A DNA stretch of 44,380 bases. Source: an uncultured Rhodobacterales bacterium (GTDB lineage: Bacteria; Pseudomonadota; Alphaproteobacteria; Rhodospirillales; CAJXLG01). Under the pieces are notes generated by a model that had not been told where the DNA came from, made no database searches, and saw only the letters and a list, made by a program, of their open reading frames with translations. A program made the position numbers and the translations under genes. Location of the stretch: contig CAZHRQ010000004.1 in NCBI GenBank assembly GCA_964535075.1, positions 1-44,380 on the forward strand, read 5' to 3'. Of this stretch, positions 21,571-24,481 are shown piece by piece. How positions within the stretch are numbered: the stretch's first letter is position 1; every line of letters starts with the position of its first letter.

Positions 21571-22674
21571 ATGGTCGCCATTTCGCTTGAGGGTCTGCGC
21601 AAGGTCTACCCGGGAGGGGTGGAGGCGGTGAAGGGCATTTCCCTGGATATCGCCGACGGCCAGATGGTGGTGCTGGTGGGGCCCTCGGGGTGCGGCAAAT
21701 CCACCCTGTTGCGCATGGTGGCCGGGCTGGAAACCATTACCGACGGGGCCCTGCGGATCGGCGACCGGCGGGTAAACGATCTGGAGCCGGGCCAGCGTGA
21801 CATCGCCATGGTGTTCCAGAACTACGCCCTGTATCCCCACATGACGGTGCGCCGCAATCTCAGTTATGGATTGCAGAATCACGGCTTTCCCAAGGCCGAG
21901 ATCGTCCGCCGCGTGGATCAGGCGGCCACCATGCTGGAAATCGCCGACTTCCTGGACCGCAAGCCCCGTCAGCTTTCGGGCGGTCAGCGGCAGCGGGTGG
22001 CCATGGGGCGGGCCATCGTCCGGGAACCGTCCGTGTTCCTGTTCGACGAACCCCTGTCCAACTTGGACGCCAAGCTGCGGGTGCAGATGCGTGTGGAAAT
22101 CCGCAAGCTGCAACGCAAGCTGGGCACCACCAGCCTGTACGTGACCCACGACCAGATGGAGGCCATGACCCTGGCCGATCTGCTGGTGGTGATGAACCAG
22201 GGGCGGGTGGAGCAGGCCGGTTCCAGCATTGCCCTGTATGAACGGCCCGAGACCCGATTCGTGGCCACCTTTATTGGCTCGCCGCAGATGAACATCCTGC
22301 CGGGAGAGATCACCGACGGCGGCATCGCCCTGGGGTCCCGGGTGCGGCTGCCCGTGAGTCTCGCCACCTCTCACCCCCGGGTGTGGGTGGGGGTGCGGCC
22401 GGAGCACTTGGCTGTGGTTCCCGAACACGCCACGGCGGAGGAAGGTCTGTGCCTGCCCCTGACCGTCATGACCCTGGAGCCTGTGGGCGCTGAGACCCTG
22501 GTGCATGCCCGCCTGGACGGCCTGGACAAGGAAACGGACGTGGTGCTGCGTATCCCCGGAACCCATGGCAGCGATGTGGTGGGGGATCATCTGATGGCCC
22601 AGGCCCCCCTGCACGCCCTGCATTACTTCGACTACGAGACCGATCAACGAGTGGACGTCGCCCCCCGCGCCTGA
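21571..22674 (+). CDS. ugpC: G3P ABC transporter ATP-binding protein
   Basis: [50 protein letters not shown] before ATG 21571. Confidence 0.93.
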
Positions 22675-23243
22675 TGGTCGCCCCACGGGAGACGCCGAGG
22701 GGCCGCCCGGTGGGGGTGGATCCACAGCACCGTCCCCCGTGCCACCCGGGCCAGTACCGCCCGCAACGCCGGCGCGGTCAGGGCTACGCAGCCCTCCGTG
22801 GGGGTGCGCTCGGGCCGCATCACATGCAGGAACAGGGCGCTGCCCCGGCCCGGCACCACCGGCCGGTCGTTGGCGCCGAACACCACCACCAGATCATAGA
22901 GGCCGTCCGTGCGCCACAGCGCTTCGTGCCGGGCGGGGAAGGGCAGGGGGACCCAGCGGTTGTAGCAGGGATGGGGGGGATCGTCGCACCAGCCGTCGCT
23001 TCGTCGGGTGCGGCGGCCGGGCAGACGGGTGTGGGGGCGCGGGCCCCGGTCGGCCCGCCAGTACAGGCCGCGCAGGGCAAAGCGGCCCACCGGGGTGATG
23101 CCGTCGCCCTCCTGGCGCTTGATATGGACACCGCCGCGCCCCAGCACGCAGGGCCACGCCCGGGGGCCAGCGCTCAGCACCCCGGCATGGGGGCCCGTGG
23201 CCCGGACGTGCAGGGTGCGGAGGCAGGGGCTCGGGGCGGTCAT
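22644..23243 (-). CDS. L,D-transpeptidase family protein (YkuD/COG3786-type), no signal peptide
   Basis: [22 protein letters not shown]...TEGCVAL (His/Cys catalytic pair); ATGA overlap with the upstream gene. Confidence 0.85.
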
Positions 23244-24265
23244 CCGCCGCGTTTGCCGCCCAGGGCCTCGTAGCGGTCCAGGGCCTCGTAGCGGTCCAGG
23301 GCCTGGGCCATGACCTGGGACAGATTCTGCGGCGGGCCGTCCTGGGCCGCCGCCAGCAGGGGATGGGCGGGCGGTGTCTGGGCCGCCGCCGATTCGCCGC
23401 CCGTCGTGGAAGCAGGGGGGGCAGAAGCCGGGGAAGCGGACGCCGAGGGGGCCGGGGCCGCCTGCGGCAGATCATAACCGGAGGCGGGGCCCGCCCGCGA
23501 CCAATCACTGTCCGGGGCACTGCCCGGCGCTCGGCCGCCCTGGGCCAGGGCTTGAGCCGCCTGCACCGAGGGCGGCGGAGCCGCCATGGCCTCGGCATCG
23601 CTCAGTTCCTGGGCCTGTAACAAGGAGGCCAGGGCCTGGGGAGTGGGCGGGGCGTCCACCATGCCTTCCGCCCGGGCAAAGCTGCCAAAGGTGGCCGGGC
23701 TCGCGCCCTCGCCCCAGGCGGGATCGCCGCCCAATTGGCTCAGGCGGCTGCGTTCGCTCAGGCTGGGCTGGGCGTTGCGCACCAGATCCTCGCGGTTGAA
23801 GCGAAACAGCCGGCCGCCATCGGAGGCTTCCGCCGCCGCCTTTTCCTGGGCGGCGGTAAGATCGCGTGGCGTGGCGCCCAAAGCTTCGGTGCGGCCGCTG
23901 TCGGCCGCGGCGTTGGCGAAAAGCTGGTTCACCTTCACCGCCCCTTGGTCCGCATTGGCTGCGTCCTGCGGCGGCGTGGAGGCGGTCGGCGTGGTTCCCG
24001 CCGCGTGCTGGGCACCCGTGGCGCCCTGAGACGTCGGCGCGGCGGCCGGCAGCGGGGAGGTCGCCGCTTGGGCCGTCTGGGCCTCGCCGCCCCGGCCCGG
24101 CAGCAGGTTCAGGGGATTGAGGGCGCTGAGCACATCCCCGAAGGTCAGCCCCCGGGTGTCCACCACCACCTTCTGCCCCACGTATTCCACGCCCTCCTGA
24201 TGGGCCCGCCATTGCGCCGACCCGGGACGCAGGACCTGCGTAACGCTTTCCTGATCGTAGGCCAT
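23240..24265 (-). CDS. Hypothetical protein, Ala/Pro/Gln-rich, with LTFGDVLSALNPL and C-terminal MAQALDRY motifs
   Basis: GGAGAGGA RBS before ATG 24265; open to TGA 23240; translationally coupled to the L,D-transpeptidase. Confidence 0.75.
   Translation of the reverse strand: MAYDQESVTQVLRPGSAQWRAHQEGVEYVGQKVVVDTRGLTFGDVLSALNPLNLLPGRGGEAQTAQAATSPLPAAAPTSQGATGAQHAAGTTPTASTPPQDAANADQGAVKVNQLFANAAADSGRTEALGATPRDLTAAQEKAAAEASDGGRLFRFNREDLVRNAQPSLSERSRLSQLGGDPAWGEGASPATFGSFARAEGMVDAPPTPQALASLLQAQELSDAEAMAAPPPSVQAAQALAQGGRAPGSAPDSDWSRAGPASGYDLPQAAPAPSASASPASAPPASTTGGESAAAQTPPAHPLLAAAQDGPPQNLSQVMAQALDRYEALDRYEALGGKRGG
23260..23304. repeat. In-frame 18-bp tandem repeat (2.5 copies), encoding ALDRYE twice
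   Basis: CCAGGGCCTCGTAGCGGT x2 + CCAGGGCCT. Confidence 0.9.
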
Positions 24266-24335
24266 GCCATCCTCTCCCAACCATCCCGCATGGGGTCCCG
24301 GGGGGACCACGTGGTACCACGCCCCGGACCCCTGT

Positions 24336-24367
24336 TGAGTTCTTGCCCCAATGAGTTCTTGCCCCAA
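24336..24367. repeat. Exact 16-bp tandem duplication at the predicted transcription start
   Basis: TGAGTTCTTGCCCCAA x2. Confidence 0.9.
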
Positions 24368-24372
24368 CAGGA

Positions 24373-24388
24373 AGCAACTCTCATGCCA
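24373..24388 (-). promoter_or_regulatory. Sigma54 -24/-12 promoter for the hypothetical + L,D-transpeptidase operon
   Basis: Minus strand TGGCATGAGAGTTGCT (GG-N10-GC, near consensus TGGCAC-N5-TTGCW). Confidence 0.75.
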
Positions 24389-24430
24389 TACCATGCAAGG
24401 CGGAGTCGCCGACCGTGATCCCGGGCACGG

Positions 24431-24481
24431 GGCGGCAAGTTTTGCCCGGCCGGCAGCCTCCTCCCGGCAGCCTCCGCCGGG
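24431..24481. promoter_or_regulatory. Two FlbD-type ftr enhancer-like palindromes
   Basis: GGCGGCAAGTTTTGCCCGG (24431-24449) and CCCGGCAGCCTCCGCCGGG (24463-24481) versus the Caulobacter ftr consensus CCCGGCARNNNYTGCCGGG. Confidence 0.65.

Follow-up and report, generated by a model that had tools for sequence, protein, structure and literature searches.

In Caulobacter, the class III/IV flagellar promoters are described as combining a sigma-54 element with ftr enhancers, which are bound by FlbD and gated by FliX (PMC3930126). Here we describe a two-gene unit lying behind promoter elements of this type in a 44,380-nucleotide stretch of DNA (hereafter the window), comprising positions 1 to 44,380 of contig CAZHRQ010000004.1 in GenBank assembly GCA_964535075.1, from an uncultured Rhodobacterales bacterium that the GTDB lineage places in the Rhodospirillales. 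The first gene, gene A (P0002; positions 24265 to 23240, minus strand), is an ATG-initiated open reading frame (ORF) of 341 open codons encoding 341 amino acids (aa), and the second, gene B (P0001; 23243 to 22644, minus strand), encodes a leaderless single-domain YkuD-fold protein of 199 aa. A first-pass annotation of the window had proposed that the pair forms an unrecognised late flagellar module acting on the cell wall. Membership of genes A and B, as an operon, in a sigma-54/FlbD (ftr-type) flagellar regulon of the same tier as flgE, flgF, and flgI is well supported, because the promoter elements are paired at 4 of 59 candidate sites in the genome, because the sigma-54 site and the palindrome are conserved in relatives, and because the family of gene A co-occurs with FliX.

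The locus shares several features with the Caulobacter class III/IV system, namely a GG-N10-GC element with an upstream inverted repeat, RpoN, a FlbD-like activator, and a fliX gene that is here divergent from flgI. It differs in that the genes behind the promoter are not known flagellar genes, and neither was found on a flagellar parts list.

ElsL of Acinetobacter baumannii, a leaderless protein consisting only of a YkuD domain, has been shown to be a cytoplasmic L,D-carboxypeptidase of wall recycling, and leaderless matches of 105 to 200 aa are taken as orthologues by its authors (PMC8649774). Gene B likewise encodes a single YkuD domain with no leader, no wall-binding domain, and a length within this range; unlike ElsL, a housekeeping recycling enzyme, it is found behind a flagellar-type sigma-54 promoter and is coupled to an unnamed gene. 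In Helicobacter pylori, Csd6 is reported as linked to cell shape and motility (PMC4599014), and in Caulobacter crescentus, an ldtD ldtX double mutant, deprived of two YkuD proteins of which one is LdtX (CC_3744), is reported to have neither 3-3 cross-links nor tripeptides (PMC6373972). Transposon insertions in CCNA_03860, a YkuD hypothetical protein gene, are reported to raise fitness, as do insertions in flagellar genes (bioRxiv 10.1101/279711). LdtX resembles gene B in being a YkuD protein from a FliX/FlbD-type alphaproteobacterium. Judging by locus-tag offsets, LdtX and CCNA_03860 may be the same protein, which is a candidate orthologue of gene B.

Wall enzymes of the SltF/PleA type, which belong to alphaproteobacterial flagella, cut glycan strands and carry Sec signals. 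The comparison with FlgJ and SltF/PleA systems lies in the provision of a wall-active enzyme for rod passage, the local FlgJ having no enzyme domain; the difference from SltF/PleA is that gene B would encode a peptide-bond Cys/His enzyme without a signal. No paper describing the gene A/B pair was found in the literature, where a listing among FlbD targets in supplementary tables is still possible.

Results

Promoter elements upstream of gene A

The genome analyzed comprises 3.06 Mb in 381 contigs and is 97.9% complete, and the window is its contig C4. Upstream of gene A, a sigma-54 (-24/-12) element, TGGCATGAGAGTTGCT, occupies positions 24388 to 24373 on the minus strand, 107 nt before the ATG, with its GG and GC doublets 10 nt apart; it is nearly identical to the sigma-54 site before a flgE-like gene, TGGCATGAGGATTGCT. 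Two ftr-like palindromes lie further upstream on the same strand. The distal palindrome, CCCGGCGGAGGCTGCCGGG (24481 to 24463), matches 18 of 19 positions of the 19-mer ftr consensus given in the first-pass annotation, which is that annotation's own; its core has one mismatch to GGCA-N5-TGCC and starts 90 nt upstream of the sigma-54 site. The proximal palindrome, CCGGGCAAAACTTGCCGCC (24449 to 24431), matches the 19-mer at 16 of 19 positions, has a perfect GGCA-N5-TGCC core starting 58 nt upstream of the sigma-54 site, and is a putative FlbD-type enhancer. On the plus strand, the flgI promoter (29496 to 29582) served as a reference within the window and has the same architecture, with palindrome TTGGGCAGGAATTGCCGGG at 29496 to 29514 and sigma-54 element TGGCACGGTTTTCGCA at 29567 to 29582. 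All of these elements, including the near-consensus sigma-54 site, the two palindromes, and their counterpart before flgI, had been pointed out in the first-pass annotation and were re-found here, together with the gene coordinates and the coupling of the two genes.

Directly 3' of the promoter, the leader of gene A carries a 16-nt tandem duplication, TTGGGGCAAGAACTCA x2 (24336 to 24367, minus strand), which is found in a second assembly as well. The leader of flgF (contig C105, immediately past the sigma-54 site at position 7105) also carries a perfect 16-nt tandem duplication, TTGTTCGAGCTTATGG x2, of unrelated sequence.

Pairing of sigma-54 sites and palindromes across the genome

The motif TGGCAY-N5-TTGCW, to which the gene A element conforms, occurs at 10 sites in the 3.06 Mb, compared with approximately 3 to 4 expected from base composition, and the sites in sensible places precede nifH-like, nifB-like, flgE-like, rpoH-like, and fliE genes in addition to gene A. 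A consensus sigma-54 site, TGGCATGATAATTGCT, lies at approximately position 1595 of contig C185, 205 nt upstream of the rpoH-like (sigma-32) gene. When at most one mismatch was allowed, the 19-mer was found at 5 sites in the genome, one before gene A and another 69 nt upstream of the flgE-like sigma-54 site.

A strict scan was then defined by sigma-54-like sites with GG and GC fixed and at most one other mismatch, combined with a perfect GGCA-N5-TGCC 54 to 110 nt upstream. Pairing was found at 4 of 59 sigma-54-like sites, namely those before gene A, flgF, flgI, and the flgE-like gene. The counts in nine control windows of equal width were 0, 0, 0, 1, 0, 0, 0, 0, and 0, the whole genome containing 106 perfect palindromes. 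Relative to the sigma-54 site, the perfect core is placed at -58 for gene A, -66 for the flgE-like gene, -67 for flgF, and -68 for flgI. A relaxed scan (sigma-54 site with at most two mismatches, palindrome with at most one) gave 57 matches versus 44 in a displaced control and was left unused as noise.

RpoN is encoded in the genome (Sigma54_DBD match on contig C23, E 1.2e-67), as are five full sigma-54 activators (enhancer-binding proteins; EBPs). One EBP gene sits within a fliF-fliG-fliN-EBP-flhA cluster on contig C37; we call its product FlbD-like, a name given from gene order only, flbD of Caulobacter having the same cluster position. The gene for the partner regulator of FlbD, fliX, is found in the window (28862 to 29281, minus strand; Pfam FliX, E 2.4e-35), divergent from flgI, which begins at position 29600 on the plus strand approximately 5 kb from the gene A promoter and is followed by the FlgJ gene.

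Flagellar genes are also present on contig C265, where fliE-fliF is preceded by the C-terminus of an EBP and a sigma-54 site, the fliF-fliG-fliN-EBP-flhA cluster on C37 being a second one. The C265 and C37 clusters represent either two flagellar systems or a foreign contig. The low-G+C contigs C54, C292, C303, and C335, set against a remainder with 66% G+C, look like bin contamination.

Conservation of the unit in relatives

Gene A belongs to a large unnamed alphaproteobacterial protein family, described below, for which 29 order-level and 30 class-level orthologous loci were collected (59 loci; G+C range, 36% to 74%). A sigma-54 site lies upstream of the family gene in 28 of the 29 order-level and 27 of the 30 class-level loci (55/59), the single order-level locus without one being cut 110 nt upstream. 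Within the 160 nt upstream, a palindrome (GGCA-N5-TGCC, at most one mismatch) was found at 44 of the 55 loci having a sigma-54 site. Among 63 palindrome matches, 7 of which are at the four promoters of the present genome, 39 fall at -80 to -61, compared with a background of 0.12 per window. The first-pass annotation had suggested examining homologues for conserved GG-N10-GC and ftr sites, and both kinds of site recur. For comparison, flgI in 7 relatives is preceded by a sigma-54-like site in all 7 and by a palindrome in the same window in 4.

Immediately behind the family gene and in its orientation, a YkuD gene is found in 26 of 29 order-level and 19 of 30 class-level loci (45/59). The three order-level loci without a YkuD gene are truncated by contig ends, and four class-level loci are truncated as well. 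The gap between the family gene and the YkuD gene has a median of 34 nt (39 loci; start-codon calls are approximate).

Co-occurrence with FliX

In a class-level sample of 401 genomes, the canonical family profile matched 158 genomes and FliX was found in 239. Leaving out G000 (the present genome), G022, G026, and G050, 397 genomes remained; both the family and FliX were found in 147 of these, the family without FliX in 8 (some of which are incomplete or weakly matched), FliX without the family in 89, and neither in 153. FliX is thereby present in 147 of 155 family-bearing genomes, a co-occurrence that the first-pass annotation had named as a check of its proposal. An order-level sample is low in power because FlgI is present in most of its genomes (353 of 401); FlgI was found in 12 of the first 20 listed order-level genomes without the family.

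Gene A and the INPLQHIP family

Gene A has no Pfam or NCBIfam match and, as had been described, encodes a low-complexity protein (A+P+G+S+T+Q = 63%), which is probably largely disordered. Searches with the whole protein by word index, and by tblastn in 40 relatives, returned no match. A phmmer search against 1.84 billion representatives returned a sole match, the same-genome paralogue P0004 (265 aa; contig C94, approximately 4658 to 5452; locus L004, 1495 to 2292), which is 50% identical to gene A over residues 3 to 70. P0004 lies behind a ubiX-like gene. It has a sigma-54 site of its own, TGGCGCGATTTTTGCT, with no palindrome and no YkuD neighbour. Relatives surfaced only when a two-sequence N-terminal profile of gene A and P0004 was used; this profile matched 332 of 401 same-order genomes, mostly via the part that is kept in P0004 and missing from gene A. 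The earlier view of gene A as an orphan protein had to be abandoned, since it is a member of a huge unnamed family with an intact paralogue, P0004, on C94.

In members of this family, a variable N-terminus is followed by a conserved core of approximately 75 aa, from which an Ala/Pro-rich linker leads to a C-terminal helix motif, W(F)S..M..AL.KY. The core reads F..FG.DGFTF.DFLDIINPLQHIP.VSTLYR..TGD.IDP.SR.AGG.LFGGPIG...TG.D.G. and is abbreviated here as INPLQHIP...TGD.IDP...GGP. Scoring of 8,000 candidates gave 5,676 proteins at E <= 1e-10. The family is matched by no Pfam or NCBIfam entry, and an Atlas search with the member from locus L019 led only to "hypothetical" clusters without Pfam domains. 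The best 120 of the scored proteins have no Pfam domain, and all are recorded as "hypothetical protein" save one "CheY-like chemotaxis protein"; comparison of the family core profile with PDB sequences gave chance-level rows only. Named records belong to the Rhodospirillales in the broad sense, including Azospirillum, Ferrovibrio, Sneathiella, Kiloniella, Pelagibius, Nitrospirillum, and Minwuia.

A subset of the family (L007, L012, L014, L019, L024, L029, L030, L032, and L034; columns ~330 to 480 of alignment A5) has an extra linker motif, N.EVL.WARRE, once or twice. Residues 81 to 99 of P0004 were considered as a membrane helix and rejected, because every member has the conserved GGPIG...NV segment in this region and the hydropathy there is modest (1.59). 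Similarly, a single 383-aa frame joining the family and YkuD sequences at L011 (G139) was not accepted as a true fusion; set against its close relatives L008 and L010, it looks like a frameshift or deletion.

Gene A retains the first half of the core, GLTFGDVLSALNPL (D44, N50, P51, and P56), and apparently the C-terminal motif, VMAQALDRYEAL (M319 and Y326), in duplicated form: an 18-nt tandem duplication (23267 to 23302, minus strand), also present in the second assembly, encodes ALDRYE twice within this motif. The canonical core profile A3 recognizes P0004 (E 4.7e-21) and does not reach gene A (E 5.3). With both gene A and P0004 left out of its construction, a C-terminal profile placed gene A first among 39,614 six-frame ORFs, but the E of 0.01 is weak.

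By position, gene A has a sigma-54 promoter 5' and a YkuD gene directly 3'. The one further genome of this taxonomic family, G001, likewise has a canonical member with a sigma-54 site, a palindrome-like element at -65, and a YkuD gene downstream. Gene A is thus the orthologue by position, its core being degraded, and P0004 is a duplicate in which the core has been retained.

Gene B and its subfamily

Gene B matches Pfam YkuD (PF03734) over residues 28 to 174 (E 7e-11; 43.3 bits, cut-off 23.4) and has no NCBIfam match. Thirty-nine orthologues were aligned over approximately 165 positions. Within GSAIF.H......PTEGC(V/I)A(L/V), all of them share His140 and nearly all share Cys152, the His/Cys pair noted in the first-pass annotation; two more cysteines, Cys32 and Cys86, are nearly invariant. 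A hydrophobic N-terminal stretch was found in none of the 39 orthologues, as judged by hydropathy, which is in keeping with the earlier statement that the protein has no Sec or Tat signal; the orthologues begin at the fold (MDI.V...). Enzymes that cross-link the wall would be expected to carry a Sec, Tat, or lipoprotein signal for the periplasm. Their median length is 170 aa, compared with 199 aa for gene B. The L019 orthologue has a compact YkuD model in the Atlas (169 aa, pTM 0.92), and its Atlas neighbours are all YkuD-only proteins of 162 to 179 aa. No second member of the gene B subfamily occurs in the genome, which does contain one Peptidase_S66 (LdcA-type) match, on contig C51, and two further YkuD genes of canonical type.

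The first-pass annotation had called gene B an L,D-transpeptidase gene. A phmmer search of gene B against PDB sequences returned no match. With a profile, the best but non-significant matches were Pgp2 (E 0.019) and 4xzz (E 0.13), over EGD..TP.G and T.GC(I/V)AL, two catalytic-site segments. The entry 4xzz is titled as a secreted protein, and we take it to be Csd6. Gene B shares these segments, at non-significant E-values, with Pgp2 of Campylobacter jejuni and Csd6 of Helicobacter pylori, both of which we take to be multi-domain proteins of Epsilonproteobacteria. The nearest solved relatives by profile are thus L,D-carboxypeptidases and not cross-linking transpeptidases, at E-values that are likewise non-significant.

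Coding features, assembly, and neighbouring genes

The TGA of gene A shares three bases with the ATG of gene B in an ATGA overlap, and the GC content by codon position is coding-like in both (0.76/0.61/0.83 in gene A and 0.77/0.63/0.89 in gene B). A ribosome-binding box, GGGAGAGG, lies just 5' of the gene A ATG (24278 to 24271, minus strand). The longer stop-to-stop frame 5' of 24265 is antisense to a plus-strand alpha/beta-hydrolase gene. Between 22600 and 24600 there are 0 differences from the second assembly (Logan contigs, from a run that is possibly the source sample).

The local FlgJ has the Rod-binding domain as its sole Pfam match, in agreement with the earlier statement that it has no muramidase. 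Between the operon and fliX lie a cytochrome P460-like gene (26035 to 26742, minus strand), a DUF3179 gene (26754 to 27722, plus strand), and a DUF6858 gene (27805 to 28458, minus strand).

Discussion

We consider it probable that genes A and B belong to the flagellar sigma-54 regulon and that the YkuD enzyme performs peptide-trimming chemistry of some kind. The following sequence of events is proposed. Once the early basal body has been assembled, a FliX-gated FlbD-like activator would become active and bind the GGCA-N5-TGCC palindromes 58 and 90 nt upstream. The bound activator would drive RpoN-RNA polymerase from the -24/-12 element at 24388 to 24373, yielding a single message for genes A and B at the time when the rod, ring, and hook genes are expressed. 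The enzyme would then cut or trim the stem peptides of peptidoglycan in the manner of an L,D-carboxypeptidase rather than make 3-3 cross-links, and this trimming would be timed to the passage of the rod, rings, and hook across the wall. Both FlbD as the activator and the substrate and site of action of the enzyme are inferred, and L,D-carboxypeptidase-type chemistry is the most likely assignment for gene B.

Several observations weigh against this model. For the expression of the operon, no RNA run is listed for this DNA. Order-level loci are usually located between ribA-like and yggS-like genes, outside flagellar clusters. In Minwuia, 3.8 Mb separate the family gene from the YkuD gene, the latter having no sigma-54 site, and in G739 (99% complete), which has the family gene, no YkuD protein of the subfamily was found at E <= 1e-5. 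On the evidence of these two genomes, the conserved promoter belongs to the family gene, the YkuD gene being usually, not always, linked to it. The association with flagella also has exceptions: the family was found in 12 of the first 20 listed FlgI-less genomes (FliG is present in 4 of 5 FlgI-less genomes checked), and in G106 (98% complete) both the unit and its sigma-54 site are retained, with neither FlgI nor FliG found. Since the compared genomes are related, a Fisher test of the co-occurrence with FliX overstates independence. In addition, the Y-R, T-G-D, P, and G-G-P positions, which hardly vary across 35 aligned members (alignment A5), are missing from gene A, and the intact paralogue P0004 has a sigma-54 site without a palindrome. 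Finally, none of the PDB similarities of gene B reaches significance, which leaves the carboxypeptidase reading weak.

The proposal of an unrecognised late flagellar module is strongly supported in its regulatory half, the promoter resembling those of flgE, flgF, and flgI and the sigma-54 site, the palindrome, and the link to FliX all being conserved in relatives. For its functional half, which foresaw wall remodelling at the basal body, flagellar export, and 3-3 cross-linking, a cytoplasmic ElsL-like role for a leaderless YkuD protein seems at least as likely. In this alternative, which we regard as possible and somewhat unlikely, gene B would act in the cytoplasm as an L,D-carboxypeptidase of recycling, shortening imported tetrapeptide muropeptides to tripeptides. 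Its flagellar timing might, equally tentatively, reflect a burst of wall turnover or have no special meaning, the family protein being separate and possibly regulatory. The lengths of gene B (199 aa) and its orthologues (median, 170 aa) and their lack of a hydrophobic N-terminus fit the description of leaderless YkuD-only proteins of 105 to 200 aa, the weak best PDB matches are L,D-carboxypeptidases, and the YkuD gene can be separate from the family gene and have no sigma-54 site. However, a Peptidase_S66 (LdcA-type) match is already present on C51, and a role in recycling leaves unexplained the tight and widely kept coupling to a FliX-associated gene behind a flagellar-type promoter. Moreover, orthologues of ElsL are reported mostly from Gamma- and Betaproteobacteria (PMC8649774).

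A different question is whether gene A still functions in this genome. Gene A may be a decaying duplicate with little or no function here, P0004 doing the job of the family, in which case the frame would survive as a leader carrying the promoter and translational coupling for gene B. The loss of the Y-R, T-G-D, P, and G-G-P positions, a core profile that misses gene A and finds only the C94 copy, the two tandem duplications in the leader and in the C-terminal motif, and the retention by P0004 of most of the core along with its own sigma-54 site are all consistent with decay. We nevertheless hold this to be rather doubtful, as gene A maintains 341 open codons with a coding-like third-position GC content of 0.83, an N-terminal 70 aa that are 50% identical to P0004, a C-terminal motif that scores above every other ORF of the genome (E 0.01), and an intact ATGA coupling and ribosome-binding box. 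Such decay in this genome may be independent of where the enzyme acts.

Alternatively, both signal-less proteins may leave the cell via the flagellar type III export gate, with the YkuD protein editing, cross-linking, or anchoring peptidoglycan at the basal body and the disordered protein serving as carrier, scaffold, or substrate. In enterobacteria, FlgJ is a wall enzyme exported by the flagellar route. Regulon membership, the variable, non-hydrophobic N-termini and long Ala/Pro-rich linkers of the family proteins, and a local FlgJ with only the Rod-binding domain, so that a wall-active partner is missing, all favor export. Against it, the YkuD orthologues start at the folded domain (MDI.V...) with no disordered N-terminal stretch for an export signal, the model of the L019 orthologue is a compact 169 aa, and the pair is unlinked in Minwuia, while in G739 the YkuD protein was not found; on balance, export appears unlikely. 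The more specific version, in which a leaderless YkuD peptidase and its disordered partner are late flagellar export substrates (or substrate and carrier) that trim or re-link peptides around the rod, rings, or stators, strikes us as distinctly improbable. If it were true, alphaproteobacteria of the FliX/FlbD type, with their FlgJ devoid of an enzyme domain, would gain a peptide-side wall-editing step in flagellar assembly, and a family of >5,000 members would be a core flagellar accessory.

It is very improbable that the sigma-54 promoter is real and served by another activator (NtrC, NtrX, or the C162 protein) in an operon that is not flagellar: five full sigma-54 activators are encoded and the identity of the activator is suggested by motif likeness only, but the palindrome has the sequence and spacing seen at flgE, flgF, and flgI and at no other sigma-54-like site in the genome, and the family tracks FliX across the class.

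The regulatory architecture of the unit is of the known Caulobacter type, and what is new is an operon of the FlbD/sigma-54 regulon that brings in an unnamed protein family. How alphaproteobacterial flagella cross the wall and are held in it is only partly understood because alphaproteobacterial FlgJ has no enzyme domain. The two-gene unit resembles a flagellar middle gene in its promoter, its conservation, and the genomes that carry it, and it is nameless in Pfam, in NCBIfam, and in the source annotations seen. Because the family occurs in cultured, tractable genera, including Azospirillum, Nitrospirillum, Sneathiella, and Kiloniella (named records of the family gene), the question is directly testable. 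If the pair is flagellar, the parts list of the flagellum would gain a new accessory family and a peptide-side wall enzyme; if the enzyme is cytoplasmic, wall recycling would be linked to the flagellar programme.

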